From an uncultured Collinsella sp. (GTDB lineage Bacteria > Actinomycetota > Coriobacteriia > Coriobacteriales > Coriobacteriaceae): DNA of 64,000 nucleotides. The stretch lies in contig UQPI01000001.1 of assembly GCA_900542945.1 (NCBI GenBank), positions 6,215-70,214 on the forward strand, read 5' to 3'. The position numbers and the translations under genes were made by a program. Position 1 is the first letter of the stretch; each line of letters begins with the position of its first letter. The notes under the pieces were generated by a model, which was given only the letters and a program-made list of their open reading frames with translations, searched no databases and was not told the origin of the DNA. Below, one piece after another: positions 32,715-49,900 of the stretch.

Positions 32715-33533
32715 CTAGGGCTCTAGCGTGAGGGTGACGGGGCAGTGGTCGCTGCCAAAGATGTCGCTGCGGATGCCGGTGTCGCGTACGTTGTCGGCGA
32801 TTGCGTCGCTTACCAGGAAGTAGTCGATGCGCCAGCCTGCGTTGTTCTTGCGGGCATTAAAGCGATAGCTCCACCAGCTGTAGACGCCCTCGACGTCGGG
32901 GTTTGCCGTGCGCCAGGTATCGGTAAAGCCGGCGTTGAGCAGCTCGGTAAACTTGCCGCGTTCTTCGTCCGAAAAGCCGGCGTTGCCGCGGTTGGACTTG
33001 GGGTTCTTAAGGTCGATTTCCTCGTGCGCCACGTTAAAGTCGCCGCAGGTCACGACGGGTTTGCCGGTCTCGCGCTCGAGTGCGTTCAAAAAGCCGCGGT
33101 AGGCATCGTCCCAGGCCATGCGCACATCGATGCGCGCGAGCTCATTTTGGGCGTTGGGCGTATAGACGTCGACAAACCAGAATTTGTCGAACTCCAGCGC
33201 GCAGACGCGGCCCTCGGTCGCGGCTTGGGCAACGAGCTCGGCAGCCTCGCCTTCGTCGGCGTAGGGTAGCAGCGCGTCGGCGTGCAGCACGCGCAGCGGT
33301 TCCTGGCGGCTAAAGACCGCAGTGCCCGAATAGCCTTTACGCTCGGCGTAGCTCCAGGTTTGGTGATAGCCGGGCAGGTCAATATCGACCTGGCCTTCTT
33401 GCAGCTTGGTCTCTTGCAGCGCCAGGATATCGACGTCGAGTTCTTGCGCGATCTGGATAAAGCTCGGGTCCTTTTTGAGCACGGCGCGCAGGCCGTTGAC
33501 GTTCCACGAGGCGAAAGTGTAAGTCTGAGGCAT
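32715..33533 (-). CDS. xth: Exodeoxyribonuclease III (AP endonuclease)
   Basis: FASWNVNGLRA...ILALQETK...SDHCPV motifs. Confidence 0.9.
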   Translation of the reverse strand: MPQTYTFASWNVNGLRAVLKKDPSFIQIAQELDVDILALQETKLQEGQVDIDLPGYHQTWSYAERKGYSGTAVFSRQEPLRVLHADALLPYADEGEAAELVAQAATEGRVCALEFDKFWFVDVYTPNAQNELARIDVRMAWDDAYRGFLNALERETGKPVVTCGDFNVAHEEIDLKNPKSNRGNAGFSDEERGKFTELLNAGFTDTWRTANPDVEGVYSWWSYRFNARKNNAGWRIDYFLVSDAIADNVRDTGIRSDIFGSDHCPVTLTLEP

Positions 33534-33647
33534 GGTGTCCTTTCGACGGGGTTGGCAGGCTTAAGATTAGCGCAACAGGGGCGGGGCGGGCCCCGCGGAC
33601 GACGGCGCAATCGCAGTCGCCCCGATCAACAAGGACGGAGGGCTCAT

Positions 33648-34400
33648 ATGACGCAGGCAATATCGGATCCCAAGCAGGCCTCCGCCGCGCTGGCGGAGCT
33701 TTTTGATACCCACAAGCGCGTGGTCTTCTTTGGCGGCGCGGGTGTTTCCACGGCAAGCGGCATTCCCGATTTTCGCAGCGTGGACGGCCTGTATCACCAG
33801 CAGTTTGCCTATCCGCCCGAGACCATGCTGTCGCACAGCTTTTACGAGACACATCCGGCGGAGTTCTTCGACTTTTACCGAACCAAGATGATCGCGCTTA
33901 ACGCTAAGCCCAACCGCTGCCACACCAAGCTGGCCGAGCTGGAGCGCGTCGGCAAGCTTGATGCCGTGGTGACGCAAAACATCGACGGCTTGCATCAGAT
34001 GGCGGGCTCGCAGCGCGTGTTTGAGTTGCACGGATCGGTCCATCGCAACATTTGCCAGTCGTGCGGAGCGGTCTATAGCGCCGAGTGGATTTGCTCGCGC
34101 GAGCACGAGGACGCCGCGGGCGTGCCCGTGTGCCCCGCGTGCGGTGGTCGCATCAAGCCCGATGTGGTGCTATACGAAGAGCCGCTCGACGAGCATGTGC
34201 TGACCGGCGCCGTTGCCGCCATCGCCGCGGCCGATGCCCTCATTGTGGGCGGGACCTCGCTCGTGGTGTATCCGGCGGCGGGCCTTACGCGCTACTTTAC
34301 CGGCGATACGCTGGCCATTTGCAATCTAGCTCCCACCGATCAAGATGCAAATGCCGACCTGCTGATTTCTTGCGACATCGCGGCCGCGTTTGCGTTCTAG
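33648..34400 (+). CDS. cobB: NAD-dependent protein deacylase (sirtuin)
   Basis: GAGVSTASGIPDFRS Rossmann motif, QNIDGLH, and zinc ribbon CQSCG...CPACGG. RBS AAGGACGGAGGG precedes the ATG at 33648. Confidence 0.85.
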   Translation: MTQAISDPKQASAALAELFDTHKRVVFFGGAGVSTASGIPDFRSVDGLYHQQFAYPPETMLSHSFYETHPAEFFDFYRTKMIALNAKPNRCHTKLAELERVGKLDAVVTQNIDGLHQMAGSQRVFELHGSVHRNICQSCGAVYSAEWICSREHEDAAGVPVCPACGGRIKPDVVLYEEPLDEHVLTGAVAAIAAADALIVGGTSLVVYPAAGLTRYFTGDTLAICNLAPTDQDANADLLISCDIAAAFAF

Positions 34401-34494
34401 CCCGTGTGCGCGGATACAATAGAAAGACTGATTGCAAAGCGACCCCGCCGCCTGCGCCCGAGCGCGGCGGCGCGGGCATTTGAGGAGGATGTTC

Positions 34495-36237
34495 ATGGCG
34501 AACGATAGCAAGACATGGCGGTGCGGAAAGTACGAGCTCAGCTTTGACCGTCCGCGCATCATGGGCGTCCTCAACGTGACGCCCGATTCGTTTAGCGACG
34601 GCGGGGAGCACTTCGACCCGGATGCCGCAATCGAGTACGGCCTGGCGATACTCGACGCCGGCGCCGACATCATCGACGTGGGCGGCGAGTCCACGCGCCC
34701 TGGTTTTACCCCGGTCAACCCCGACGAGGAGGCTCGCCGCGTGCTGCCCGTGGTGCGCGCGCTGGCCAAAGAGGGTGCCATCGTCTCGATTGACACGCGC
34801 CACGTGGCGGTTGCCAAGGCGGCCGTGCGCTGCGGCGCCTCTATTGTCAACGACGTGACGGGCTTCACCGACCCCAAGATGGTCGAGTTTGTTAAGACGA
34901 GCGCCTGCGGCGTTATCGTGATGCACGCCGGCGAGGTCGCCGCCCCTGCTCGTACGCACGCGACGGTGCAGCTTGATACCTCGGCTGCGGCGTTTGTTGC
35001 CGAGAAGGCACGCGAAGCGGCCGCCGAGGCCGCGCGCGAGGCCGAGAAGCCAGCCCGTCGCCGTCGCGGCAAGTTGCTGGGCGAGCCTAAGCCGGAGGCC
35101 AAGCTTCCGGGTGGCGTGGTGCAGCCCTCGTTGCCGTTTGGCGAACCTGAGCCCGCGACCGAGCCTGCAAGCGAGCAGGAGACGCCTGCCGCCGAGCAGG
35201 CTGCTGCCGCCGAGACCGTCGCGCCCGCGCCCGAGGCCGCGCCCGCAGCCACCGAGGCCGCATCGGAGCCCAATGATCACCTGGCGGCCATGATGCGCCG
35301 CAGCGCCCGCCGCGAGGAGGCCTACGTGCCCACCTCTCAGCTCCGCCGCTTCACCCTGCCCGATTCGGCGCCCATCATGCGCCGCGTTATGGGCTTTCTG
35401 TCCGACCAGGCCCGCACGCTCATCCACGCCGGCGTGTCGCGCGACCGCATCTGCATCGATCCTGGCCCGGGCTTTGGTAAGTCGGCTAACGAGGACATCG
35501 TCATCCAGCGCGAGACTGCCAAGATGGCGTCACTGGGCTATCCGCTCATGTGCGCCGTATCGCGCAAGCGCTTTGTGGGCGCCGTCTCGGGCGTGACCGA
35601 GGCCGCCGAGCGCGATGCCGCTACGTTTGGCGTGTGCCTGGGCGCCATCCAGGCCGGTGCCAACATCGTGCGCGTGCACGACGCCGCGGGTTTTGCGCAG
35701 TTCCTGAACGGCTACTGGGCGGTTGCCAAGCCGCAGCCGCGCCGCGCGTTTGTGGCCGTGGGCTCCAACCTGGGGCATCGCTGTGACAACATCCGCGCCG
35801 CACGCGACATGATCGCCGAGATTCCACTCACCTGCGTGTCCAACTCCTCCAAGATCTACGAGAGCGAGCCGGCCTACGAGACGCGTCAGGACGCGTTTGC
35901 CAACGCCGTCATCGAGATCAAGACCGAGCTGGCGCCGTTGGTGCTGCTCGACGAGCTCATGAAGATCGAGGCCGAGCTGGGCCGCGACCGCTCCAAAAAG
36001 GCCAAGGCCAACGGCCCGCGCACCATCGACCTGGATCTGCTGTGGATGGACGGCGAGACCCACGGGGGCAAAAAGCTGCGCCTGCCGCATCCGCTGATCG
36101 GCGAGCGCGACTTTGTGCTGGTGCCGCTCGAGGATCTGATGCACGATCCGGCGCGGTTCTTCCGCTACAACGGCGTCGAGGTCAAGGGGCCCGAGGACCG
36201 CGTGGGCCATATCGTGGGCGAATTGGGGCGCATGTAG
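34495..36237 (+). CDS. folP/folK: Dihydropteroate synthase - HPPK fusion (FolP-FolK) with ~110-aa Ala/Glu/Pro-rich low-complexity insertion inside the DHPS domain
   Basis: DHPS motifs GVLNVTPDSFSDGG, DIIDVGGESTRPG and ICIDPGPGFGK are split by the EAAREAEKP...APAATEAA insert. C-terminal HPPK motifs AFVAVGSNLG and RTIDLDLL are present. Confidence 0.85.
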   Translation: MANDSKTWRCGKYELSFDRPRIMGVLNVTPDSFSDGGEHFDPDAAIEYGLAILDAGADIIDVGGESTRPGFTPVNPDEEARRVLPVVRALAKEGAIVSIDTRHVAVAKAAVRCGASIVNDVTGFTDPKMVEFVKTSACGVIVMHAGEVAAPARTHATVQLDTSAAAFVAEKAREAAAEAAREAEKPARRRRGKLLGEPKPEAKLPGGVVQPSLPFGEPEPATEPASEQETPAAEQAAAAETVAPAPEAAPAATEAASEPNDHLAAMMRRSARREEAYVPTSQLRRFTLPDSAPIMRRVMGFLSDQARTLIHAGVSRDRICIDPGPGFGKSANEDIVIQRETAKMASLGYPLMCAVSRKRFVGAVSGVTEAAERDAATFGVCLGAIQAGANIVRVHDAAGFAQFLNGYWAVAKPQPRRAFVAVGSNLGHRCDNIRAARDMIAEIPLTCVSNSSKIYESEPAYETRQDAFANAVIEIKTELAPLVLLDELMKIEAELGRDRSKKAKANGPRTIDLDLLWMDGETHGGKKLRLPHPLIGERDFVLVPLEDLMHDPARFFRYNGVEVKGPEDRVGHIVGELGRM

Positions 36238-36939
36238 ATGATCGAGATGAATGCTGTTGCCGCCGGCACCGAGCTCGACGCGGCGCGTGACGCGGGCCGC
36301 GAGGGCGTGTCCGCGGGCTGGTGCGCGTGGAGCGCGGGCGATGCTTCGCTGACGTTTTCGCTGGTCGTTCGCCCCGACGTGAACATGCACGCCTTCCACG
36401 GTCTTCCGTTTGTGGCCGCGATGGGCATGATGGACGCGCTCGTGGGCACGACGTCGACGCCGGGCCTGGGCCTTGCCGGTAAGGTGGGTATCCAGTGGCC
36501 GAGTGACATCGTGTGCGGTGCGCCTGCGTTTGAGACGTCACTCGCGCGTGTTGCCGTGAACGGCGGTGCCGGTGCTGCGGGCATGTTTGCCGCGGTGACG
36601 GTTGATATTGAACGTGCGGCGCTGGGCGAGCTTGGCGTGGATATGGCCGACGAGGTGCTGGTCGAGGCATTGGCCACCGCCGTGCTGACCCGCGTGGACA
36701 CCTGGGCGGTTGCCGCCAACACACCACAGGGCGCTGCCGGCCCGCTGGCTCCGGTGCTGGGTGAGTACTTCGATATGGTGCCGCTGCTGGGTCGTCAGGT
36801 TGCGGCGGTGTCGCCCAACGGTTTGCCGCTTGCGGTCGGTGTGTTTGCGGGCCTGGACATCTGGGGCCGCGCGACCATCAAGACCGATGCCGGCGAGCAG
36901 GAGTTTCCGCCCGAGGCCGTGCGCATTCGCGGTCTGTAG
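36238..36939 (+). CDS. BPL/LPL-family protein (degenerate biotin-protein-ligase-like)
   Basis: The layout DAGREGVSAGWCAWSAGDASLTFSLVVRP resembles the BirA GRGRRGR.W.S..G..L.FSL.L.P region, but the canonical GRGRRG is not conserved. Confidence 0.4.
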   Translation: MIEMNAVAAGTELDAARDAGREGVSAGWCAWSAGDASLTFSLVVRPDVNMHAFHGLPFVAAMGMMDALVGTTSTPGLGLAGKVGIQWPSDIVCGAPAFETSLARVAVNGGAGAAGMFAAVTVDIERAALGELGVDMADEVLVEALATAVLTRVDTWAVAANTPQGAAGPLAPVLGEYFDMVPLLGRQVAAVSPNGLPLAVGVFAGLDIWGRATIKTDAGEQEFPPEAVRIRGL

Positions 36940-37037
36940 CGCGGGGCGTTCGCGTCCAAAGACAACAATGACAACAAGACCCTCCTCGGCCTGTGCCGGG
37001 GAGGGTTTCGCCTATCTGGGGAATGGGTTGCCAGCGC

Positions 37038-37166
37038 CCTATTCCTCAAAACTGAAAATCTTTCGATTTTGAGGAATAGAATTAAGCCAGCTCGGCCTTT
37101 AACGAGGTATACTCGTTGCAGAGTCTATTCCTCAAAACTGAATAATTTTCGTTTTTGAGGAATAGC
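37038..37166. repeat. Two palindromic hairpins CTATTCCTCAAAACTGAA-N-TTTTGAGGAATAG upstream of the ATPase cassette (third copy at 38393-38441)
   Basis: Near-identical inverted repeats at 37038-37081, 37124-37166 and 38393-38441 bracket gene 37192-38388. Confidence 0.8.
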
Positions 37167-37191
37167 GATAGAAGACCACAGGGAGGCACCA

Positions 37192-38388
37192 ATGAAACTC
37201 ATCAATAGAACGTCATATATGGACACGTTGACGAGCCTTATTGGCGTACCGGACATCAAGGTCATAACGGGCATTCGCCGTAGCGGTAAGTCAAAATTGC
37301 TCGAGGCCCTCCGCGATTACGTGGAGGCAAATCTGTCCAATTCGAATGTCATCCATATCAATTACAACCTCGACGAGTTCGAGGGCCTGCTCGAATATCA
37401 TGCCCTGCTCGCCTATGTGAAAGAGCATCGAGTGTCCGACAAGCAAAACTCCCTGCTTATCGACGAGGTTCAGATGTGCGACGGCTTTGAACGCGCGATC
37501 AACAGCCTCCATGCATCCGAGCAGTACGACATCTTCATCACCGGATCGAACGCCTTTTTGCTGTCGAGCGATCTGTCGACGCTCTTTACGGGGCGCACGT
37601 TCGAGATCGAGGTTTTCCCATTCTCGTTTGAGGAGTATCGCCTCTATAGTGACGAGGGCGAGGTCGATCGCGACTTCGATGAGTACGCGAGAACCGGCGG
37701 TATGTCCGGCTCTTACCCTTATCCACTGCAGGAGCAGCGCTACCAATATCTCTCCAATGTCTTCAAAACGCTCATCGTGAGGGATATCGTGCAGCGGCAT
37801 AACGTGAGAAACGAATCGGCACTGCTGCGCATTGCCGATTACATGATGGACAACGTCTCCAATATAACGTCGGCACGCAACATTACAGATGTTTTGAATG
37901 CGGATGGGCTAAAGATTACGAACAAGACGGTCGGCACGTACATGGGGTACCTGTGCGATGCGTTTGCCTTCTATAAAGTTCGTCGGTACGACATTCGCGG
38001 CAAAAAATACCTTAAGAGCGGCGAGAAGTATTACCTGGCAGACCACGCGTTCAAATACGCACTGCTTGGTACACGTGATATGGATTGGGGACGCGTATAC
38101 GAGAACATGGTGGCCATCGAGCTGCTGCGCCGCGGATACGAGGTATACGTCGGTGTGCTCTATAAAAAGGAAATAGACTTTGTAGCAATCAAGCGAAGCG
38201 AGAAGCTCTACATTCAGGTGAGCGACGACATCAGCTCGGATAAGACGTTTGAACGCGAGATTTCGCCACTGCTGAGCATTGGCGATGCGTATCCCAAGAT
38301 GATTCTTGCCCGCACGCATCACGAGGCCACGGATCGCGATGGGGTGCAGATCGTGGACCTGGCGAGGTGGTTGTGCGGCGAGGCTTAG
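37192..38388 (+). CDS. AAA-family ATPase with DUF4143-type C-terminal domain
   Basis: Walker A GIRRSGKSKLLE in an AAA_14-like N-terminus, typical of the ATPase/DUF4143 family. Confidence 0.7.
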   Translation: MKLINRTSYMDTLTSLIGVPDIKVITGIRRSGKSKLLEALRDYVEANLSNSNVIHINYNLDEFEGLLEYHALLAYVKEHRVSDKQNSLLIDEVQMCDGFERAINSLHASEQYDIFITGSNAFLLSSDLSTLFTGRTFEIEVFPFSFEEYRLYSDEGEVDRDFDEYARTGGMSGSYPYPLQEQRYQYLSNVFKTLIVRDIVQRHNVRNESALLRIADYMMDNVSNITSARNITDVLNADGLKITNKTVGTYMGYLCDAFAFYKVRRYDIRGKKYLKSGEKYYLADHAFKYALLGTRDMDWGRVYENMVAIELLRRGYEVYVGVLYKKEIDFVAIKRSEKLYIQVSDDISSDKTFEREISPLLSIGDAYPKMILARTHHEATDRDGVQIVDLARWLCGEA

Positions 38389-38474
38389 CAAAAAAATCCT
38401 ATTCCTCAAAACTGAAAAATTTTCGATTTTGAGGAATAGGATTGGCGGCTGGTTGCTGCGACCTGGCGTTTACT

Positions 38475-39248
38475 CTATCCCAGCTCCTGCATGCGGCGGT
38501 AGATTTCGCAGATGCCCTTGATGGTGAGTTGCCCGTCGACCACGTCGAAGGCATCGGTCGAATCGGCGACAATGCCGGCGAGACCGCCCGTGGCGATAAC
38601 GGTGGCATCCTCGCGGCCCAGCTCGCGCTTCATGCGCGTGACCAGGCCCTCGGCCATGGCGGCGGCGCCCATCACGGCGCCGACCTTGATGCACTCTTCG
38701 GTGTCGCGACCGATGGCGTGTTCGGGCGCCTCGAGCGGCACGCTGGCGAGCTTGGCGGCACGGGCGGCAAGCGCGTCCATGGAGATGCGGATGCCCGGCG
38801 CAATCGCCCCGCCAATGTAATAACCGTCCTCATCGATGACGTCGATATTGGTCGCGGTGCCAAAGTCCACCACGATTGCCGGCGCGCCGTAGAAAGTCTC
38901 GGCCGCAACGGCGTTGGCGACGCGGTCGGCACCTACGGCTTGGGGGCGCGCCGCGCGCAGCTTGGTCACGGCAGCCGTCTGCGGCCCGATGACGATGGCA
39001 TCCGCCGCGATGCGGTCGGCCACGGCGTGCCACTCGCGCGAGAGCTGCGGCACCACGCCCGCAAAGGCGATCGCATCGACCGCATCGAGCGAGAGGCCGT
39101 ACATCTTAAAGAAACCCATCAGGCGCACGTGGATCTCGTCGGCGGTATAGGAGCGGTCGGTGGGCATGCGCCACGACTGCACCAGCTCGTCTCCGTCAAA
39201 CAGGCCCATGGCCGTCTGCGTGTTTCCCATATCGATAGCGAGCAGCAT
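38475..39248 (-). CDS. coaX: Type III pantothenate kinase
   Basis: MLLAIDMGNTQT start and DFGTATNIDVI...GGAIAPG motifs. The ORF-track extension to 39590 reads across the tRNA gene and is an artefact. Confidence 0.85.
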   Translation of the reverse strand: MLLAIDMGNTQTAMGLFDGDELVQSWRMPTDRSYTADEIHVRLMGFFKMYGLSLDAVDAIAFAGVVPQLSREWHAVADRIAADAIVIGPQTAAVTKLRAARPQAVGADRVANAVAAETFYGAPAIVVDFGTATNIDVIDEDGYYIGGAIAPGIRISMDALAARAAKLASVPLEAPEHAIGRDTEECIKVGAVMGAAAMAEGLVTRMKRELGREDATVIATGGLAGIVADSTDAFDVVDGQLTIKGICEIYRRMQELG

Positions 39249-39444: not shown

Positions 39445-39521
39445 TGCGGGGTGGAGCAGTCTGGTAGCTCGCCGGGCTCATAACCCGGAGGTCGTAGGTT
39501 CAAATCCTGCCCCCGCGACCA
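39445..39521 (+). tRNA. tRNA-Met (CAT), initiator-like
   Basis: GCGGGGTGGAGCAGTCTGGTAGCTCGCCGGGCTCATAACCCGGAGGTCGTAGGTTCAAATCCTGCCCCCGCGACCA is almost identical to canonical bacterial tRNA-fMet. It has three G-C pairs in the anticodon stem and encoded CCA. A hairpin plus T-run terminator follows at 39530-39565. Confidence 0.9.
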
Positions 39522-41920: not shown

Positions 41921-42012
41921 GCAAGAAAGCTATCGCGTATTGAGTGGGCGGGGAGTGCCGTATCGGTGCTCCCCGTCTTTTTGCCAATAGAGTGTCCCTG
42001 ACCAGCGGGTTC

Positions 42013-42100
42013 AGAAAATCCGAATCTTTAGAACATGAAAATCCGAATTATATAAATACGAAAATCCGAATCACAACCACCCGAAAATCCGAATTTGCTA
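42013..42100 (+). repeat. Five direct iterons GAAAATCCGAAT spaced ~12 nt, upstream of the second DUF4143 ATPase
   Basis: cagAAAATCCGAATc...tGAAAATCCGAATt...cGAAAATCCGAATc...cGAAAATCCGAATt. Confidence 0.8.
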
Positions 42101-42153
42101 CAGTGGAATAGAGGAATCAGAAAGCAGGAACTGGAAATCTGCGGGGGTGGCTC

Positions 42154-43458
42154 ATGGCGGGCGAGAGGCTACATCGGGACGGATACATCCCACGTATCGT
42201 GGATGCGCAAATCGAGCGCTACCTTCGTGTCTTTGGCGCGGTCGAGATTGCGGGCACCAAGTGGTGCGGCAAGACGTGGGCCGCGCTCGAGCACGGGGCG
42301 TCCGTCTCGTATGTCGACGAGAATCTCGACCTCGCGCGTGCCGACCCGGCGATGATGTTGCTGGGTGACCGTCCGCATATTATCGATGAGTGGCAGCGCG
42401 TTCCCCAGATTTGGGACTACGTTAGACACGAGGTTGACCGCACCCGGGGCACGCGCGGCGCCTATATCCTCACGGGTTCCGCCACGCCTGCGTTTGGCTC
42501 AAAGGCGGAGGCGCCCGCGCATAGTGGAGCCGGCCGCATCGGCCGCGTCCGCATGCACCCCATGACGTTTGCCGAGACAGGTGAGTCCAACGGCAAGGTG
42601 AGCCTGGCGGGCTTGTTTGAGCATCGTTTTGAGCCCTGCCGGTGCGATGGCGATACGCCGGGGCTTGTCGAAGCCGCCTGCCGCGGCGGCTGGCCCGAGG
42701 CGATCGATATGGTTTCGGCTGACGCCCAGCTCATCGCCCGCGAATATCTCAACACCACATTTTCGAGCAGCTTCCCGGCGGTCGGTCTCGACCCCGATAT
42801 TGCTCGTCGAGTCTCCGCATCGATCGCGCGCAATCTGGGACAGGCAACCACGTATAAAACGATTCTTATGGATATGTTCGGTGCCGAGGAGGAACCCGCA
42901 GCGTTTGCCGACGAGACCAAGGTGCGTAGGTACCTGGATGCCCTCAAAGGCATGTTCATTCTCGAGGAGGTCCCCGGTTGGGTTCCCGCCGCGCGCGACA
43001 AACGGCGCTTTACCGTCAAGCCCAAGCGCTATCTGGCAGATCCGAGCCTTGCTTGCGCCTTGCTAGGTATGTCCTTGCAGGCGCTGCTTGCCGACTGGCA
43101 GACATTTGGTCTGGTGTTTGAGAATTTGGTCATACGCGACCTTTCGGTCTACGCACGTTCGCTCGACCTGCTGGATAGCACGCCCGTGCGCTATTATCGC
43201 GACGATTCGGGCCTTGAGTGCGATGCTATCGTGCAGCTAGCCGACGGACGGTGGGCCGCCTTTGAGATTAAGGTGAGTGAAGATAAAGCGAGCGCCGGCG
43301 TCGAGAGCCTCAAGCGCGTTCGCAAGAAGGTCTGTGGAAATCCCCGTTCACGCACACGCGAACCGGAGTTTATGGCCGTGATTGTGGGGGTGGGTGAGTA
43401 CGCCCGCGAGGTCGAGGACGGTATCTACGTGATACCCGTGCGCGCGTTGGGGTGTTAA
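42154..43458 (+). CDS. AAA-family ATPase with DUF4143-type C-terminal domain (second copy)
   Basis: Walker A GTKWCGKTWAALE. Same architecture as 37192-38388. Terminator hairpin at 43463-43490. Confidence 0.7.
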   Translation: MAGERLHRDGYIPRIVDAQIERYLRVFGAVEIAGTKWCGKTWAALEHGASVSYVDENLDLARADPAMMLLGDRPHIIDEWQRVPQIWDYVRHEVDRTRGTRGAYILTGSATPAFGSKAEAPAHSGAGRIGRVRMHPMTFAETGESNGKVSLAGLFEHRFEPCRCDGDTPGLVEAACRGGWPEAIDMVSADAQLIAREYLNTTFSSSFPAVGLDPDIARRVSASIARNLGQATTYKTILMDMFGAEEEPAAFADETKVRRYLDALKGMFILEEVPGWVPAARDKRRFTVKPKRYLADPSLACALLGMSLQALLADWQTFGLVFENLVIRDLSVYARSLDLLDSTPVRYYRDDSGLECDAIVQLADGRWAAFEIKVSEDKASAGVESLKRVRKKVCGNPRSRTREPEFMAVIVGVGEYAREVEDGIYVIPVRALGC

Positions 43459-43534
43459 GGGGCAGCACGCCGTGTGTCCGCTGCCCGGTGCTACGGATCA
43501 GTGCAAGGGGGTCAGGCTTGTTTGCACCAAGGGT

Positions 43535-43735
43535 TTGACATATGGGGGGGGGAGGCCGCTGGCGCTAACGAGGGCGTGTTAAGGGTGCTCGACTGGCTTA
43601 AACGCACCCTTAACCTCATCTTCACCTCAAATGAGGCTAAGATGAGGTTAAGATGAGGCAAGCAAACAACTGGGCAAATGCTGAAAATAGGGTGCTGTTA
43701 ACCTCAAAATGAGGTTAAGATGAGGCAAAGCTCGA
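43535..43735 (+). promoter_or_regulatory. Candidate regulatory region: TTGACA followed by a G9 homopolymer, then nested palindromes including a 21-bp perfect palindrome TTAACCTCAAAATGAGGTTAA
   Basis: TTGACA 43535-43540. G-run 43544-43552. Hairpins GTTAAGGGTGC...GCACCCTTAAC and TTAACCTCATCTT...AAGATGAGGTTAA. Duplicated AAGATGAGG motifs. Lies ~350-550 bp upstream of the SipW-type operon. Confidence 0.4.
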
Positions 43736-44079: not shown

Positions 44080-45132
44080 ATGAGTGGCATGGACCGACAT
44101 AGCGAGCTCCAGCAGCACAAGACGGTGGCCGAGTACCGCCAAGCTGCCGACGAGCACGCGCGGACCCTCAAGGATTTCTGGAAAGATTTCCTGGTGAGCG
44201 GTCTGTTTGTGCTGGCCGCCATCGTTGCCATCTTTGCATGCCTGGCCTGGTTTGCCGCGAATAACCGAGTGAGCGCCACGGGGAGCACGATCGGGGCGAA
44301 GGGTCCGCGGTTTGTGCTCTCGGGAACGCAGGGCGGCACGGCGGGCAAGTACGACGCCCAGGACAACTACGCGTCGGACAGTACAAGCCTTGCCGTGAAC
44401 AATCTTTTCAACCTCAATAACATGAGTGCCGATGGCAGTCTCTCTCCGGGGTCGGCTGGTCAGCTCCAGCTCAACGTCAAGCCGCTCTGTAATGACCTGC
44501 GTGATATCACGGTGGAAATGACCTGGGAAATCTCTGTCCAGACGAGCGCTGCGGGCACGGGCGGCACCGCTACGGACGCATCGAAAAACGAAGAGATCAT
44601 CAACTCGCTTAAAAATCTGGTGCGCGGCCATATCCTGGTTTTCCAGGGCAAAGACGACTCTGGCTTTTACTCGAATCCGCTGGTCCCCACGACCACCACG
44701 GTGACCCAGGACGGGGCCAGCGTCACCGTCATTACGCAGAGCTTTACCATCCCGGCGCGGAGCTTTTGCGCTGAGGGCTCAAATAGCACGACAAGAACCG
44801 TACCCAAAACCCTCTACTGGATTTGGCCGGAGCAGTTTAAGAGCTATGTTCGCACGGGTAATGCCGGCTACGGCGGCAACCTTTTTGCAAGCACAGACGC
44901 CGGTTACACTGCCCTCGTCGGCGACATCAACAATAACCACGCGCGCTATTTCCGCGCCGACAGCACGAGCGTTCCGGGCCAGGCGCCCAGCGAGGTTCCG
45001 CCTGTCAAGGCCGGCATGTCCTCTGCATTTGTGGAAGCCTGCGCCGGCTATTACAACAACGCCGACGAGGTTATCGGCAAGAATATCAAGTACATTCGCG
45101 TGCGCTTTACCGCCAAGGAGGCGGATAAATAA
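44080..45132 (+). CDS. TasA/camelysin-like protein with SipW-cognate-type signal peptide (paralog 1)
   Basis: Cytoplasmic N-tail, one TM/h-region, then LAWFAANN and SATGS resembling the A.F.D / AAGTLDL motifs of SipW substrates. Beta-rich extracellular region. No sortase motif. Confidence 0.5.
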   Translation: MSGMDRHSELQQHKTVAEYRQAADEHARTLKDFWKDFLVSGLFVLAAIVAIFACLAWFAANNRVSATGSTIGAKGPRFVLSGTQGGTAGKYDAQDNYASDSTSLAVNNLFNLNNMSADGSLSPGSAGQLQLNVKPLCNDLRDITVEMTWEISVQTSAAGTGGTATDASKNEEIINSLKNLVRGHILVFQGKDDSGFYSNPLVPTTTTVTQDGASVTVITQSFTIPARSFCAEGSNSTTRTVPKTLYWIWPEQFKSYVRTGNAGYGGNLFASTDAGYTALVGDINNNHARYFRADSTSVPGQAPSEVPPVKAGMSSAFVEACAGYYNNADEVIGKNIKYIRVRFTAKEADK

Positions 45133-45951
45133 ATGGACGAGCAGCTTAACGCCCGCGAGCAGGGCGATATCAAGCACAACGAAGAAGTGGTGAACTCCGG
45201 CGACGACGGGTTCGGCTCGCACGGCGAGGCGCGTCCGGCTGGCCGCATCGAGCGCATCGAGACTTGGGTGAGCGGCCACCGTCGCGAATCCCTTGCCATC
45301 ATGGGCCTGGTGGCCGTGCTTCTCGTGTTGCTGGGATTGACGCTCGGATGGTTTGTCGATGCCAATCACGGCTCCACCGTTGGTAAGATCAAGGAGCCGG
45401 CGGAGCTCAAAGTGCTGGGCCCCAACGCTACGGCAACAGAGCAGATCGACCTGAGCTACAACCCCGAATACGGCGATACCAAGACCGGTAACACGGTGAC
45501 GCTCATGCGCCCGTTTTGCGTGCAGACGGGCGGCGATGGGTTTGAGCTGCAGCTTGCGAATACGACCAACATTGAAGGTCTCACTATCGAGCTGTATAAA
45601 GCCGAGAATCCGGGCCCAGGTGATACTTCCGACGTGAGCGGCACTGCGGGCGGCAAGCCCTATAGCTGGAAAATGTCTGAAACGGATCTGCTGAAGGACT
45701 TTAAGCTCATTAAGACCGAGCCGGTCCCCGGTGCAAACGACCCTACATTCAAGGACTACCAAAAGGTCCAACGCAACGCGCGTCCGCTCTACCGTTTCAA
45801 GGTGTTCAACAAAGACGAGCTCAATGCCAAGACGCTCGACGGCTCGACTGGCAACGACACGCTTAACTTCATCATCAAGCTTTCGTGGGACGAGAGCGCC
45901 AAAGAGACCGACGTGATCTATGTGATCGCGCGCAACACGAGCGGTATGTAG
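45133..45951 (+). CDS. TasA/camelysin-like protein with SipW-cognate-type signal peptide (paralog 2)
   Basis: Same architecture (…LLGLTLGWFVDANHGSTVG…). Strong AAGGAGG RBS. The start abuts the previous stop. Confidence 0.5.
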   Translation: MDEQLNAREQGDIKHNEEVVNSGDDGFGSHGEARPAGRIERIETWVSGHRRESLAIMGLVAVLLVLLGLTLGWFVDANHGSTVGKIKEPAELKVLGPNATATEQIDLSYNPEYGDTKTGNTVTLMRPFCVQTGGDGFELQLANTTNIEGLTIELYKAENPGPGDTSDVSGTAGGKPYSWKMSETDLLKDFKLIKTEPVPGANDPTFKDYQKVQRNARPLYRFKVFNKDELNAKTLDGSTGNDTLNFIIKLSWDESAKETDVIYVIARNTSGM

Positions 45952-45965
45952 GAGAGGGGGCGCAC

Positions 45966-46910
45966 ATGGAGAAGCAAGGGAGGCAGCAGGATGCCGAGCG
46001 CGAGCAGCTGGCAAAAGGCAAAAGCCTAGTCAAGAATAAGCTGGTTGTGGCGGCAATCGCACTTGTTTGCGCCGTGGCGCTCGTGACGGGTGGTTACTTT
46101 ACCTATTCCGCCTACACCGCCAACGGATTTCTAAAGTCCGTCGCCGCAACGGGCACCGCGCAGAACCTGTTTGCGAGCGATTTGCTCACGGGCTATATGA
46201 GTGCGCCCAGCAACGACGACCTCGACCGTGCCCAGCGCTCCGTTACGGTGTATCCCAGCGGCGGACAGTGCAGCTTCACCTTTAGCATCTACAACTATTT
46301 GCTGAGCAATAGCAACTTCTGCAACGACAAAAACGTGACGTACACCTTAACGGTCGAGGGGCATGGGCTCGATGATGCCACGTGGAGTTATGCGCCCCAG
46401 CCCAGCGGCAGCGTCACACTTCCGGAGAATCAGCCCACCAAGCACGACTACACCGTGACGTTCCCTGAGGACAAGTTGGGACATGCCTACTTTGTGATTA
46501 GGGCGACGGTTGTTTCGGACAAGAGTCCCGGCACCGAGCTCACCTGTCTGGCGGCGAAAGTCGTGCCGTCAAAGAGGGCCGAGGTCAAAACCGCTGCGGT
46601 TGAGGGCGCGCTTGTTGATGAGGCTGGCGAGTTTGCTGATTACGCTGCGTACAACTACCGCGTGACGGTTACGGGCGCACCGGCAAACGTCACGCTCACG
46701 TGGGGGGAGAACGCGGAGATCGACCCGTTCTTCAAGATCAACCATGGCGCGACGGTGAATGTTGAAAAACACAAGGCTACGTTCACCATGGAGCCGGGTT
46801 CGATGGTCGTCAACTTCTATCGAGCGGACGGCAAAACGCCCGATTCCTGGGGTGACCTGGGCATTAGCGTGAGTGGAACCACCCAAACGGGTACGACGGA
46901 GACTCAATAA
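45966..46910 (+). CDS. TasA/camelysin-like protein with SipW-cognate-type signal peptide (paralog 3)
   Basis: KNKLVVAAIALVCAVALVTGGYFTYSAYT closely follows the SipW-cognate pattern (KK.L..A..LGLALVGGGT.A.F.D). RBS GGAGAGGGGG is present. 15 bp after the previous gene. Confidence 0.55.
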   Translation: MEKQGRQQDAEREQLAKGKSLVKNKLVVAAIALVCAVALVTGGYFTYSAYTANGFLKSVAATGTAQNLFASDLLTGYMSAPSNDDLDRAQRSVTVYPSGGQCSFTFSIYNYLLSNSNFCNDKNVTYTLTVEGHGLDDATWSYAPQPSGSVTLPENQPTKHDYTVTFPEDKLGHAYFVIRATVVSDKSPGTELTCLAAKVVPSKRAEVKTAAVEGALVDEAGEFADYAAYNYRVTVTGAPANVTLTWGENAEIDPFFKINHGATVNVEKHKATFTMEPGSMVVNFYRADGKTPDSWGDLGISVSGTTQTGTTETQ

Positions 46911-46949
46911 CTCTGGCAGCAGAGTTTTAGGATAAGAGGTACGGAATCG

Positions 46950-49900
46950 ATGAGAACGGTAAAGCGCATACTCGCAGAGTTCATGACGGTGGTCATGGTG
47001 CTCCAGGCATGCTCGCCCACGGTGGCCGCCGTGGCGGCCGGCTGGCAGAACATTTCGAGCGAGATTGCCGCCGCGTCTGCGGAGGCATCGGATGCAGCCG
47101 AGAGCGGTGAGACCAACGGCGACGCCGCGAATGGGTCTGGGTCGAGTGATATCGGCGCCGCGGGTGACGGTGCCGAGGATGGTGCTGCGAAGGACGACGC
47201 TGCAACGGGCGATACTTCCGATAGTGCTACGGGTTCCGATTCTACGGGCGACCAGACGGAAGGCGATGATACTGCTGGGGATGCCGCCGCTGATGATGCC
47301 GATCAAAATGCTGGTGATGAGGCTTCGGAAGACACTGCGGCCCAGGCGGGTGCGACGATCACAGATTTGAATAAGCTTGTCGAGCTGCTCAGGGCTAATG
47401 GTGCGGAAAACGTCGAGCTCAAAGACGACGGGAGCGGAATCCGAAGCCTCGATGTCAAGTCGTCGGAGGCGTTCGCCGTCCTGTCTAACGCCGACGCTTC
47501 GCTTTACTATGATGCGCAGATCAAGGTTATCATCACGGGCGATGCGAAGCTCACCGAGTCGGCTAAGAACGGCATGTCTTTCCAGGGCCTTGGCAGTGAT
47601 GAGCATCCGTTTGAAGGCAAAATCTATAGGTCGTTGAATGGCGTTGATAGCCCTGTTGAGCTTACGTCTAACCGGACGGTTTTCAATAACTTCAAACTGA
47701 CTGACCAAAACAATACGGTCAAGATAAAGTGGATAGGCGCAACTACCTATAGCGCGCCGATGGTCGCTACGAAGGTCAGCGGTGGGGGCAAGACGCTCAA
47801 CGCTGTGGTCAACATCGCAGATCCCGTAGGCACCGGCGGGACGGATACGACTTCCGCTCTGACGGCGCCCCTTTTGGGTGAGGCGATGGGTGACCTTACT
47901 ACAGAGGTCACCTATGGCCCTGCCGGTTCTCTCGAGAAGCTCAACGTAAATGCAGCGGGAAACATCGGTCTTTTAGCGAATACAGTCAAGAGCGGAACCT
48001 TTACGGTGGGGTCTGTTAAGTTTCCCGATAGCCTTGCCGCGGGCGGTGTCGTCAAGACGAGCTCCGGTAATGCCGGTCTGCTCGTAGGCACGGTCGAGGA
48101 TGGCGCGACTCTAAACGTCGGCACCCTTAATGTTCCCGCTGTTACCGTTCAGTCTGAAAGCGGTTCCGCCGGTGGCGTCGTGGGCCTCGTCGGTTCGAAC
48201 ACAGGCGCCACAGTCAAGGTCACGGAGGCTCTCGACCTGCACATGCTCACCGTCAAGGGCACCACCGCCAGTGGCGGCTTCATCGGTAAGGCGACCAAGC
48301 TCGCGCTGGGCGCGGACAACAAGAAGTTCACCTGTCCCGCCAACGTCGGCGATAAGAACAGCAAAAGTTCCGGCGGCTTCATCGGCGACGTTAGTTTTGC
48401 CGGCCCGGTCGAGTTTGCCAACAACGACCAAATCGATACGGGCGAGGGCGTGAATCTTGGCCAAAGTGGGGACACGGGCGCGGGCGGCGTGTTCGGTCTC
48501 CTGGACACAACGAACGGCGATGTCGCAATATCAGGTGGCTTGTATACTAGCAAACTGGTGACGGGCTCCAGCTCCATCTATGGCGGTCTGGTCGGTAGAG
48601 TTCAGGATGTGACCAACACAGAGAAGTCGAACAACACCCTTCATATAAAGACGGGTGCCGCGGGCAACCGCTGTTCGGTTGATACTACATGCAGCGTCGC
48701 GCCACGACTGGCAGGAGGCCTGGTCGGCTGGGTGGCAAAGAGCAACAATACTGGAGGCGTTGTAATCGTTGACGGCGCGGACGTCACGTGCCATTCTCCA
48801 AAAGCCAATGGAAAGAACTGCGGGTTTGGCGGTGTTGTTGGCGCCTTGGATAGCGGCTATAGCGTGGGCGGGCGTTCGCGTTTTGGAATTCTGGACTGCG
48901 GGGACGTTCGCGTTGAAACTGATAAAAACGAATCAATCGCATGTGGTGCCGGAATTGTGGGTTCGGCATGGAACGGCGTCTTGCGCTTGCGTGGGACTAC
49001 CGATTTATCCGATTGCAAGCTCGAGGCCAACGGTAATACCAGCCAAATTCTTAGATCCTTGGATGGATGCGCCCCATTGGTGTTTGCTCTAGGTTCAGGC
49101 TCGGATGCTGAGGCAACGAACGATAATTATTGGCTTTACAAACGTCCTGCTGCGGCGAGGATCGATGACCTGACCTATAACCAGGTTATCCGCCTGACCG
49201 GAGAGGAGGGCAAGCTCAGCAAGGATCTTATTAAACTTGATGAAAGCACCTTTTATCAGCCGTTGTGCAATCTGAGTGGTGCTCCAGATGCTGGCAGCAG
49301 TGCTGGCTACTCTTGGGGTAAGCAGCTACGGTCCCAAAATGGTGACGGGAAGTCGGGTACATACCTCATTAATGATGCGGATACATTCGCATGCATTGCC
49401 ATGACGGTCCAAACGAACGGCTACTTTGGCGGTCTATTCGGCATCGGCACGGCTAACATTACGAGCTGGTATGGTAATAGTGGGAATGCTATCTCAATTA
49501 CTTCCGACATTGACCTGCGAGGCACAGGCCTTGAAGGTCTTGCATGTGATGGGTCCGGGCGAGTTAACGCTTTCGTAGGGGCTGTCGAGGGAAACCATCA
49601 TACCGTTACCTTGGCGATTGGCGAACCTTACGGTACGCGCAACGGCAATGCGCTTGGCGCAAACGATTCGACTGAAGGGAACGGCAAGATTTACCGTCAC
49701 AGCCGTCTGGGCCTCTTTGCCGCTATCGGCGGTGGCGCGACGGTGAATAACCTTACCGTCGATGGCGTTATGAAGTTCGATAACGGCTTAGGCGTCGACG
49801 CTGGCTCGCTTGCGGCAACTATCACTGGCAAGGCAACACTCAACGGCGTTACGTGCAAGCCGAAAATCACCTGCGATGATACGTTCGGCAACGATGTCAA

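Follow-up and report, generated by a model that had tools for sequence, protein, structure and literature searches.

Layout of the locus

Within the window (the whole 64-kb stretch of DNA that was analysed), a gene encoding a DUF4143 ATPase is enclosed by copies of a 41-nt palindrome, and the resulting cassette (37039-38439) sits between the convergent BPL-like and coaX genes. An exact search of the window located three near-identical palindromes at 37039-37079, 37125-37165 and 38399-38439, two upstream and one downstream of the gene, precisely as the first-pass annotation had described them. Within the 64-kb window, CTATTCCTCAAAA and its reverse complement are confined to 37039/37067, 37125/37153 and 38399/38427; 0.58 matches were expected per shuffle, and the observed count was reached in 0 of 100 shuffles. 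A repeat search returned a 46-nt repeat in three copies, with spacings of 86 and 1274 nt. The features of the region are listed below.

36238-36939, + strand: left flank gene, BPL-like, 233 aa (Pfam BPL_LplA_LipB_2, 1.2e-5, 25.4 bits, just under the 27-bit cut-off)
36980-37008, + strand: G+C-rich, terminator-like stem-loop CCCTCC..GGAGGG followed by TTT, read from the sequence; belongs to the BPL-like gene
37011-37027, unstranded: remnant of an older collapsed hairpin, CCTATCTGGGGAATGGG, resembling a hairpin left end fused to a right arm
37039-37079, unstranded: palindrome 1, with 13-bp arms and a 15-nt A/T-rich centre, upstream of the putative promoter
37080-37124, + strand: spacer 'O', 45 nt, putative cassette promoter with a -10-like TATACT at 37109-37114, by eye only
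37125-37165, unstranded: palindrome 2, ending 26 nt 5' of the ATG
37180-37186, + strand: Shine-Dalgarno-like AGGGAGG, read from the sequence
37192-38388, + strand: ATPase gene, 398 aa, AAA_14 plus DUF4143, PADLOC PDC-S01 (Pfam and PADLOC profiles)
38390-38396, unstranded: A7 tract; on the minus strand a T7 right after palindrome 3, possibly terminator-like for coaX transcripts
38399-38439, unstranded: palindrome 3, 10 nt past the stop codon; extended palindrome 38395-38443
38475-39248, - strand: right flank gene coaX, type III pantothenate kinase, 257 aa (Pfam Pan_kinase, 3.6e-59)
42014-42094, + strand: iterons outside the cassette, four copies of GAAAATCCGAAT with a 23-nt period
42154-43458, + strand: second DUF4143 ATPase gene, 434 aa, product 22% identical to the first, with canonical D..ExK

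The GC fraction across the ATPase gene region is 0.44-0.55 versus 0.64-0.69 in the flanks. On the left, the BPL-like gene adjoins the spacer in all related loci and its stem-loop is present in every spacer allele, with no + strand terminator flagged by a scan around 36980-37008; on the right, coaX is also annotated as 257 aa on an identical public contig. Spacer O was found in every occupied allele. A sigma-70 scan of the window region returned no + strand promoter and did not flag the TATACT of spacer O; the centre of palindrome 2 was rejected as the place of a -10 element, TANNNT occurring in just 9 of 62 copies. Single-strand folding of the palindromes gave -12 to -17 kcal/mol (z -5 to -8). 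Their stems are A/T-rich rather than G+C-rich, none of the three was flagged by an intrinsic terminator scan, and a T7 tract follows the stem only for palindrome 3 on the minus strand. The sole match in an Rfam 15 search was mir-553 at chance level (22.9 bits against a gathering score of 82), so that the search gave no known RNA family for the hairpin.

The ATPase matches AAA_14 (7.8e-29, 100.7 bits; cut-off 27) and DUF4143 (8.1e-18, 65.1 bits; cut-off 28.1), both above the curated cut-offs, and the PDC-S01 model PADLOC PDLC04787 over its full length (3e-146, residues 1-396), as expected of a PDC-S01 family member. Its P-loop AAA+ motifs are intact (Walker A GIRRSGKS, Walker B LLIDEVQ), with G32, K33, D91 and E92 conserved in 118-123 of 124 clade representatives. 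In the nuclease-like domain E327-x-D329 is conserved; this clade differs from the family in that the (D/E)xK position of the PD-(D/E)XK superfamily is Y340-x-Q342 in 118-119 of the 124 representatives. Since polar residues of the domain are conserved, a variant active site is possible. The predicted fold resembles DNA-binding initiator and clamp-loader AAA+ proteins, with low TM-scores (about 0.2-0.26), and the model suggests a Cdc6/ORC/clamp-loader-type AAA+ protein in which a winged helix is predicted and the C-terminal domain is PD-(D/E)XK-like. A sequence search for solved structures and searches of NCBIfam and PHROGs returned no match.

The family comprises 11,167 clusters at 50% identity. 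Passages of published work describe it (as COG1373) as a very abundant ATPase fused to a PD-(D/E)XK-superfamily domain (PMC12988326; bioRxiv 10.1101/2024.01.29.577857; PMC3424549), and passages of one survey place PDC-S01/DUF4143 ATPases fourth by frequency among prokaryotic defence candidates (PMC12988326). In such passages PDC systems are listed as defence candidates only (bioRxiv 10.1101/2024.01.29.577857; PMC12988326), and the literature passages on the names DUF4143, COG1373 and PDC-S01 make no mention of cis-elements of these genes.

Presence and absence of the cassette in Collinsella

Among 154 related BPL/coaX spacers, 63 were occupied by the cassette, 61 held one hairpin, 19 held two and eight held none. 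This distribution agrees with the first-pass annotation, which had called DUF4143 ATPases often accessory and had taken the hairpin-bounded unit to be a cassette splitting the BPL-like/coaX neighbourhood. Across strains the spacer contains the ATPase, a PstI-type restriction-modification system, IS elements or nothing; the PstI-type system was seen in one relative and is a circumstantial pointer to the candidate defence role.

In the C. aerofaciens group the cassette was present in one copy per genome and always at the same site, among the matches listed. Likewise the hairpin occurred at one locus in each of three single-contig genomes of 2.26-2.45 Mb (L033, L052 and L083), and all but two of the Collinsella hairpin matches listed were at the BPL/coaX locus, with two extra solo sites among roughly 100 genomes; the underlying scan required exact 10-nt arm cores, and these counts apply to the matches listed. 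Two genomes had a solo copy upstream of a DnaB-type helicase gene, and L107 had one, at a cassette-less site, upstream of a serpin gene. The five hairpin matches in viral contigs were due to chance, as the arms do not extend; plasmid collections contained no match to hairpin or cassette, and phage records gave two partial matches to the cassette (~69%) within the coding region only.

These data bear on the idea that the hairpin is an independent REP- or MITE-like repeat or a generic host terminator, with the ATPase as a passenger between two copies. Solo copies without the gene at three kinds of site would agree with it, as would the imperfect extension of the palindrome into the flanks in some haplotypes. 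Yet the many copies at unrelated loci expected of a REP/BIME or MITE were not seen among the matches listed, and the hairpin is co-inherited with the gene family across contexts and phyla, with lineage-specific arms. We consider this explanation very improbable. Generic terminators had been named as an alternative by the first-pass annotation; with one locus per genome among the matches listed and palindromes that move with the gene family, a generic terminator or dispersed repeat was ruled out. Palindromy extending into the flanks was also discarded as a constraint, most one-hairpin alleles pairing non-complementary flank types. The same annotation had set against its own view the prospect of relatives with the ATPase at the same site: Collinsella carriers do all have it here, but many relatives have no ATPase, and homologues of 78-92% identity outside the group lie elsewhere.

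The empty alleles differ in origin. Those without a hairpin are deletions that join the remnant at 37011-37027 to the right arm of the hairpin after it, and the junction exists in three versions. All 19 two-hairpin empty alleles contain a different 44-nt spacer in place of spacer O, which rules out simple deletion of the present cassette; this 44-nt spacer is probably an old decayed promoter module. Among 27 pairs of loci whose flanks share at least 98% identity, none differed in allele state. Cassette turnover is thus slow, and fast switching or excision was ruled out. An attC, dif or CRISPR-like repeat was likewise rejected on sequence and geometry, and because spacer O is promoter-like and conserved.

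Some of these observations could instead reflect a dedicated mobility, in which the palindromes are recombination sites where the nuclease-like domain of the ATPase, or a recombinase acting in trans, cuts or exchanges at hairpins or cruciforms. The cassette would then be self-mobilising or of homing type, and the solo hairpins its empty target or excision sites. Consistent with this, solo hairpins mark cassette-less sites in two contexts (BPL/coaX and, in L107, serpin), with a third solo near DnaB; the switch between flank haplotypes falls precisely at the hairpin, and each of the three right-flank haplotypes was seen with every allele state; hairpin centres resemble left/right hybrids of CTG..CAG and TCG..CGA types; the spacer holds a decayed older hairpin; and the arrangement hairpin-promoter spacer-hairpin was absent from all 88 empty sites. 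Against it stand the single fixed site in the C. aerofaciens group among the matches listed, the slow turnover and the replacement of the canonical ExK by Y-x-Q across the clade. Moreover, homologous recombination or slippage between 41-bp repeats suffices for the deletions. A search of the proteins encoded between 32.7 and 46.9 kb found no recombinase domain (on the identical contig L001 the product of 32715-33533 is an Exo_endo_phos protein), and no excision product of the cassette was found.

Palindromes that accompany the gene

The same palindromes accompany homologues of 92, 88, 83, 81 and 78% identity, which lie in at least four further chromosomal settings: following a tRNA gene, together with neighbouring island genes and adjoining a serpin gene; NeuB/RelB; transaldolase/HAD; HAD/gatC; and adjoining NERD. 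Similarity of these cassettes to the window stops within about 2 nt of the outer palindrome edges, giving at least eight coincident homology breakpoints across contexts, and the distance from palindrome 2 to the ATG is 26-27 nt across five contexts. The palindromes are cis-elements of the ATPase gene and not of the host locus. A BirA-type repressor from the BPL-like neighbour was rejected as their binder, because the 233-aa product has no HTH domain that could be found and a sub-threshold Pfam match, and also because the palindromes follow the ATPase into contexts without a BPL-like gene. The exception is a 76% homologue (L215), at which no palindrome was found.

For dedicated mobility, the breakpoints at the palindrome edges in every context are favourable evidence, as are the att-like direct repeats of 40-60 nt that flank the gene in L133 and L219. 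The mobility suggested by the first-pass annotation stands in a weak sense only: at least five contexts hold the unit, but no state difference was seen at flank identity of at least 98%, and neither a recombinase (between 32.7 and 46.9 kb) nor an excision product was found.

Arm sequence is under constraint. Synonymous sites are saturated between the window gene and its homologues (dS 1.2-3.1 and dN/dS 0.04-0.07 for those of 78-92% identity; dN/dS 0.04-0.10 against homologues overall), and by hand count 76 of 78 positions in the 13-nt arms match the 92% homologue. Arm diversity in occupied alleles is 0.003, versus 0.11-0.19 at 4-fold sites of the flank genes and 0.135 in the hairpin centre; in the solo hairpins of cassette-less alleles it is 0.022, versus 0.12-0.22 at neutral sites. 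The centre varies as much as neutral sites do; inner stem and loop drift freely while the arm sequence is frozen.

At 45-63% identity, homologues keep the order palindrome-promoter-palindrome-gene with different arm sequences. The 63% homologue has 17-bp arms, a scan-detected TTGATT-17-TATAAT (10/12; 0.2 expected) that overlaps the right half, and a downstream copy at the stop. In the 52-55% homologues two upstream palindromes about 46 nt apart bracket a promoter-like site, detected by the scan in the 52% homologues, where the second palindrome overlaps the ribosome-binding region. The 50% and 45% homologues carry a 15+15+15 palindrome and three half-sites, adjoining an extended -10. Candidate operators that overlap or bracket a promoter-like site are scan-supported in the 63% and 52% homologues, and in the window a by-eye -10 lies between palindromes 1 and 2. 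Upstream palindromes exceeded mononucleotide shuffles (at most 5 of 300) in 9 of 11 loci. A downstream copy may be retained in degenerate form in the 50% homologue (L227); none was recognisable in the 52-55% homologues or in a 60% homologue (L231), where the gene is consequently not bounded. This counts further against dedicated mobility, which we regard as unlikely overall.

Three residues at the N-terminus of the predicted recognition helix, T243-N244-K245, track the arms: TNK goes with TTCCTC, SPK or NHK with TT(a/t)CcC, NDR with TTtCgC and NHV with TTTC(G/A)AAA, across about seven lineages in which this covariation is confounded with overall divergence.

An RNA-level role was also weighed, in which the palindromes act as a 5'-terminal stem-loop and a 3' hairpin in mRNA stability, two-way termination or translation gating, with no sequence-specific DNA-binding protein. 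Beyond the strong predicted folding, a transcript begun from the by-eye -10 would open with palindrome 2, whose 26-nt distance to the ATG is fixed; palindrome 3 comes straight after the stop codon, with T7 next in the minus-strand reading; the ribosome-binding region is overlapped in the 52% homologues; and a few arm changes are compensated on both sides. However, it is arm sequence and not pairing alone that is frozen over saturated synonymous divergence, palindrome 1 lies upstream of the putative promoter, and the -35 of the 63% homologue lies inside a palindrome, so that this copy cannot be fully transcribed. With A/U-rich stems, no terminator flagged and no Rfam match, a purely RNA-based explanation appears improbable.

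We regard the following as established: the anatomy of the cassette, its polymorphism, the co-transfer of the palindromes with the gene, selection acting on the arm sequences, and retention of the same design among distant homologues.

Candidate operators, related systems and a neighbouring iteron array

Taken together, these results lead us to favour, with some confidence, a model in which 37039-38439 is a self-contained, probably autoregulated single-gene cassette whose palindromes serve both as operators and as gain/loss breakpoints. The 'tight autoregulation' proposed by the first-pass annotation is the reading preferred from sequence comparison; co-inheritance, arm selection and helix covariation lend indirect support to binding of the palindromes by the gene product. 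The predicted winged helix of the encoded protein would bind the palindromes as operators and the gene would be autorepressed; binding, repression and the defence role are all inferred. Palindromes 1 and 2 would bracket the gene's own promoter region, and the copy past the stop codon could be a third operator and a two-way insulator against convergent coaX. Because the candidate operators are direct repeats, they may also act as gain/loss breakpoints: recombination among the three would delete the gene or the promoter module and leave one or two solo hairpins, and the same repeats mark the edges of the unit wherever it lies in other genomes.

Several observations sit less well with operators. 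The arms of solo hairpins are still of low diversity, although an operator with no other function would be expected to decay once its gene is gone; recurrent re-derivation of solos, or a second role for them, would account for this. The half-sites have their centres 28 bp apart, not a usual spacing for a repressor that binds as a simple dimer. The lack of a + strand sigma-70 scan promoter in the window, the DnaB-type solos and the palindrome-less L215 also count against them. A bolder proposal makes the palindromes the working substrate: the AAA+ protein would load on the arms, open the A/T-rich centre and extrude a cruciform, which the variant nuclease-like domain would nick or resolve. We consider this a long shot. 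If true, DUF4143/PDC-S01 genes would be self-targeting homing-type cassettes, a class of mobile element without transposase or integrase, with solo hairpins as landing pads, and the link with defence loci would be accounted for by a like action on phage or plasmid DNA that contains palindromes.

The autoregulated cassette can be set beside several known systems. Restriction-modification systems regulated by C proteins have palindromic C-boxes and a separate small HTH protein as regulator. The resemblance is to a horizontally moving (here candidate) defence unit with its own promoter (here putative) overlapped by palindromic operators (here candidates), so that expression would be self-limiting wherever the unit lands. 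In contrast, the only co-transferred protein here is the large ATPase itself, and C-protein systems are not known to have an operator copy past the stop codon or to leave solo operators, whereas palindromes of both kinds are present here. Orc1/Cdc6 and DnaA initiators have inverted recognition boxes around an A/T-rich region beside their own gene; similarly, an initiator-clade AAA+ protein with a predicted winged helix is here encoded next to inverted repeats flanking an A/T-rich centre. At 15 nt, however, the centre falls far short of the length of an unwinding element, the protein has an extra nuclease-like domain, and the structural similarity is low, as noted above.

Like integron cassettes with attC, the unit is a single gene delimited by palindromes, and empty sites keep a copy. 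However, CTATTCCTCAAAA..TTTTGAGGAATAG has no RYYYAAC/GTTRRRY boxes and is near-perfect at 41 nt, versus 57-141 nt with extrahelical bases in attC. Furthermore, the cassette comes with a putative promoter of its own, stays at a single site in each genome (among the matches listed) and turns over slowly, and no intI integrase or attC array was found across 32.7-46.9 kb. In the minimal mobile elements and intergenic mosaic elements of Neisseria, exchange is by transformation and flanking homology, and the repeats are not known to be tied to the cargo gene. Strain-variable cargo in a spacer flanked by conserved genes and short repeats at module boundaries are common to both, but the repeats of this cassette are specific to the ATPase gene family.

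The comparison describes one large DUF4143/PDC-S01 clade with a conserved cis-architecture, in which lineage-specific palindromes bracket the promoter and closer relatives add a post-stop copy. This architecture provides the first concrete, testable candidate DNA partner for DUF4143/PDC-S01 proteins, and the homologues supply a natural set of arm and protein specificity variants. In a common human gut bacterium, Collinsella, the alternative states (cassette; two, one or no hairpins) form a clean natural polymorphism, usable for asking how single-gene defence cassettes come and go without a recognisable mobility gene.

The second DUF4143 ATPase of the window matches PADLOC PDLC04790 (1e-53) and carries a canonical ECD..FEIK. 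Upstream of it the first-pass annotation had counted five iterons; there are four exact copies of GAAAATCCGAAT, at 42014, 42037, 42060 and 42083, with a period of exactly 23 nt. It had also joined the array to the second ATPase as one unit, and proposed a common DNA-binding partner for iterons and hairpins from a shared AAAATC/GATTTT core. Relatives without the second ATPase gene keep the array (four copies; one in L183), so the iterons are not tied to that gene and are not supported as its cis-site. Compared with plasmid-type iterons or an oriV, the 23-nt period agrees and the tie to an adjacent initiator gene does not. AAAATC is present in just 13 of 62 upstream-1 and 9 of 62 downstream hairpin copies; because this core falls in the hypervariable hairpin centre, it is not a conserved hairpin feature, and a common partner is not supported. 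Viral contigs contained neither the iteron array nor relatives of the second ATPase. Iteron number varies among relatives, with five in some and one in one relative, and the second ATPase is itself an insertion/deletion polymorphism.

The ATPase cassette and its flanks

The cassette lies between convergent neighbours, with a folP-folK fusion and the BPL-like gene on the left and coaX on the right. Its features are as follows.

36980-37008: the BPL-like gene's own G+C-rich stem-loop, then TTT (read from the sequence)
37011-37027: CCTATCTGGGGAATGGG, 11 nt to the left of hairpin 1 and apparently the decayed remains of an older hairpin that has collapsed
37039/37067, 37125/37153 and 38399/38427: CTATTCCTCAAAA and its reverse complement, the arms of hairpins 1-3
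37192-38388: ATPase ORF, 398 aa, AAA_14 and DUF4143 (Pfam)
right flank, minus strand: coaX

The three palindromes that the first-pass annotation had described at 37038-38441 were confirmed by position and by a repeat search, which returned three 46-nt copies at spacings of 86 and 1274 nt. No further CTATTCCTCAAAA pair occurs elsewhere in the 64-kb window; 0.58 matches are expected per shuffle, and the observed count was attained in 0 of 100 shuffles. As single strands the palindromes fold at -12 to -17 kcal/mol (z-scores -5 to -8). A generic terminator or dispersed repeat was excluded, within a genome scan limited to exact 10-nt arm cores. The GC content of the ATPase ORF is 0.44-0.55, compared with 0.64-0.69 on either side. 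The host belongs to the aerofaciens group of Collinsella; identical contigs come from human gut metagenomes, and the genome matches listed were nearly all Collinsella. The fused folP-folK gene (Pterin_bind and HPPK, 601-aa ORF, 34432-36237) is directly upstream of the BPL-like gene and is preceded by a Sir2-family gene (33282-34400), a gene order kept across all related loci.

The encoded protein is a full-length match to PDC-S01, a PADLOC candidate (3e-146). PDC-S01 is presented as a candidate defence gene from 'guilt by embedding' (bioRxiv 10.1101/2024.01.29.577857; PMC12988326), and DUF4143 is listed as a PD-(D/E)XK family (PMC3424549); the available excerpts of the literature on DUF4143, COG1373 or PDC-S01 yielded no mention of flanking palindromes. 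The family comprises 11,167 clusters at 50% identity (E <=1e-3). Walker A and B are intact and E304, E310 and E327-x-D329 are conserved, while the superfamily (D/E)xK position is Y340-x-Q342 in 118-119 of 124 clade representatives, down to 33% identity. Sequence search found no relative with a solved structure. Foldseek against the PDB returned Cdc6/ORC subunits, clamp loaders, DnaA, STAND NLRs and Cdn1, with TM-scores that are low because the model's multi-domain orientation is uncertain.

Allelic states of the BPL-coaX spacer

Two samples of related loci, the majority from metagenome-assembled genomes, were compared. A genome-collection scan requiring exact 10-nt arm cores gave at least 120 stretches, the matches listed being nearly all Collinsella and nearly all in the BPL-coaX spacer; this sample is biased, since it was retrieved via the hairpin itself. 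An unbiased sample of 80 metagenome loci retrieved via coaX gave 69 complete spacers.

Alleles of the BPL-coaX spacer (allele: length; unbiased sample; pooled samples)
No hairpin: 151-153 nt; 8/69; 8/154
One hairpin: ~200 nt; 28/69; 61/154
Two hairpins: ~287 nt; 13/69; 19/154
Full cassette: ~1540-1566 nt; 20/69 (plus 4 truncated); 63/154
Other, all with extra insertions: pooled 3/154

The proposal that the gene forms a hairpin-bounded cassette splitting the BPL-like/coaX neighbourhood is borne out, the cassette being present in 63 of 154 pooled spacers. Spacer lengths are modular: a hairpin plus spacer adds 85 nt, and leader, gene and hairpin add 1273 nt. One genome carries hairpin-gene-hairpin without the promoter module. 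The hairpin-less alleles are deletions running from the remnant at 37011-37027 to the right arm of the next hairpin, and their three different junctions indicate at least three independent events. All 19 two-hairpin alleles contain a 44-nt spacer unlike that of occupied alleles; on this sequence comparison they appear to go back to an older module rather than to the present cassette.

Three unrelated right-flank haplotypes start exactly at the hairpin edge, with every state found on each and strong linkage. All 27 pairs of loci with >=98% identity in the flanking genes agreed in allele state, and the most similar pairs that disagreed had flanks ~97.5-97.8% identical. Cassette turnover is slow.

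Two of the three other alleles (L080 and L058) carry an IS, IS110-like and IS3-like, directly left of hairpin 1. The third (L107:1315-7445) holds a 6.1-kb insert with a PstI-type restriction-modification system (Eco57I-like methylase and BsuBI/PstI endonuclease), a 409-aa ORF without a Pfam match, a solo hairpin, a serpin gene and an ATP-grasp gene; its serpin block is 96% identical to one beside the cassette in C. bouchesdurhonensis. Judging by this allele, the spacer resembles a small hot spot at which accessory and defence cargo collects.

Palindromes at other sites and in distant homologues

The identical protein was found at the BPL-coaX site only. Homologues of lower identity sit at other sites, most with the same palindromes.

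Homologues at other sites (identity: related loci; context; palindromes)
92%: L123-126, C. bouchesdurhonensis; after a tRNA gene and neighbouring island genes, before serpin; 2 upstream, 1 downstream
88%: L127-129; context homologous to L123; 1 upstream, 1 downstream
83%: L220; transaldolase / HAD; 2 upstream, 1 downstream
81%: L130-132; NeuB / RelB; 1 upstream, 1 downstream
78%: L221; NERD follows; upstream only
78%: L133; HAD / gatC; upstream only
76%: L215; none

The C. bouchesdurhonensis cassette lies ~120 nt downstream of the tRNA gene.

Similarity between the window and these homologues begins at CTATTCC and stops at GGAATAG, to within ~2 nt. Synonymous divergence is saturated (dS 1.24-3.1; dN/dS 0.04-0.07), yet the window agrees with the 92% homologue at 76 of 78 arm positions (hand count). 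Arm diversity among occupied alleles of the unbiased sample is 0.003; the hairpin centre reaches 0.135, and four-fold sites in the adjacent genes 0.11-0.19. Taken together, these values indicate that the arm sequence itself is under strong selection, and the ATPase gene is the only thing co-inherited with the arms across contexts. Compared across 168 distinct copies, the hairpin keeps one anatomy: 13 outer pairs that hardly vary, then on either side two hypervariable positions that are mostly unpaired, an inner stem GAAA(A)/(T)TTTC and a variable centre. Some arm changes are matched by a compensating change in the opposite arm (CCATTCC/GGAATGG, CTGTTCC/GGAACAG, TTATTCC/GGAATAA and CTATTACCC/GGGTAATAG).

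More distant homologues (45-63%) share the geometry with other arm sequences.

63%, L230: 17-bp arms CTATTTCCCAAAATCG; the downstream copy overlaps the stop
60%, L231: arms CTATTTCGC
52-55%, L232-234 (GC 0.35-0.40): upstream, a pair of palindromes (CCACTTTCAAAAA, 15 nt, TTTTTGAAAGTGG) spaced ~46 nt and bracketing a promoter-like site; 9 nt separate the second one from the ATG
50%, L227 (visibly G+C-rich in its coding sequence): CATCGGTTTCGAAAC and GTTTCGAAACCGGTG with 15 A/T-rich nt between them, ending 14 nt ahead of the ATG
45%, L228: three half-sites beside TGATATACT

Upstream palindromes exceed shuffles that keep mononucleotide composition only (<=5/300) in 9 of 11 such loci but not in L229, which is very A/T-rich, or in L215, where the palindrome is absent. 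The L230 promoter, detected by a tool, is TTGATT-17-TATAAT (10/12, against 0.2 expected), with its -35 inside the right half of the palindrome. An RNA-only role for the palindromes is unlikely, because it is the sequence and not the pairing that is conserved, because one copy precedes the window promoter called by eye, and because this -35 element falls within a palindrome.

These data favour a self-contained, insulated and probably autoregulated gene unit, in which operators lie on both sides of the promoter and again after the gene. The most economical candidate for binding them would be the ATPase itself. In an AlphaFold model (pLDDT 73), residues 243-245 begin the third helix of a winged-helix-like unit, and these residues co-vary with the arms: TNK with TTCCTC in six lineages, SPK or NHK with TT(a/t)CcC, NDR with TTtCgC, and NHV with TTTC(G/A)AAA. 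The NHV group spans a more G+C-rich and an A/T-rich host with the same residues and inner arm sequence. The covariation is suggestive only, since lineages are few and it is confounded with overall divergence. Being direct repeats of one another, the 41-bp operators would also serve as the unit's deletion sites, leaving solo copies, and would delimit its edges wherever it is installed.

A role in mobility seems rather improbable to us, although several observations sit badly with a pure operator. At least eight context breakpoints coincide exactly with palindrome edges, solo hairpins occupy cassette-less sites in two contexts, solo arm diversity (0.022) is still 5-10x below neutral, hairpin centres look hybrid, and the spacer holds the decayed hairpin. 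In two Collinsella genomes a solo hairpin (L087:7095-7135, L108:6665-6705) precedes a DnaB-type helicase gene by ~400 nt, with no ATPase gene nearby and an indel directly beside it; one of the two has compensated arms (CCATTCC/GGAATGG). Non-hairpin direct repeats of 40-60 nt (~75-85% identical) flank two more distant homologues (L133:3850-3920 and 5215-5280; L219, about 2510-2570 and 4105-4165) and resemble attL/attR cores or a target duplication. A dedicated mechanism is disfavoured by a copy number of one per genome, the slow turnover, the lack of a recombinase among the genes examined (32.7-46.9 kb) and the non-canonical nuclease motif.

The second ATPase and other features of the window

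The second DUF4143 gene (42154-43458), at only 22% identity to the first, encodes a canonical D..ExK motif. Five iterons had been reported upstream of it; the sequence shows four exact GAAAATCCGAAT copies with a period of exactly 23 nt, and relatives carry 1, 4 or 5. The gene is a present/absent polymorphism (window 41921-43560; loci L010, L020, L083, L102, L153, L183 and L213), with three alleles after a flavin oxidoreductase gene: the repeat array and second ATPase; the array without the ATPase, then a membrane-protein gene; or neither, with unrelated sequence containing an HTH gene and a large membrane protein. Since the array is kept in relatives without the gene, it is not a component of that gene's unit. 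Nor did the AAAATC core said to link both repeat types hold up: it falls in the hairpin centre, which is as variable as neutral sites, and is present in a minority of copies.

Just upstream of the second ATPase, GGAATAGAGGAAT (42106-42120) contains two hairpin right-arm motifs (GGAATAG, AGGAAT), possibly by chance. A tRNA-Met (CAT) gene (39445-39521) lies between coaX and the flavin oxidoreductase gene. Four consecutive ORFs at 44080-57857 (350, 272, 341 and a giant 3635 aa) have no Pfam match. A 1894-aa ORF (106-5790), in which a GH31 glycosidase is joined to F5/8 type C, FIVAR, Ig-like and fn3 domains, probably encodes a large glycosidase anchored at the cell surface.
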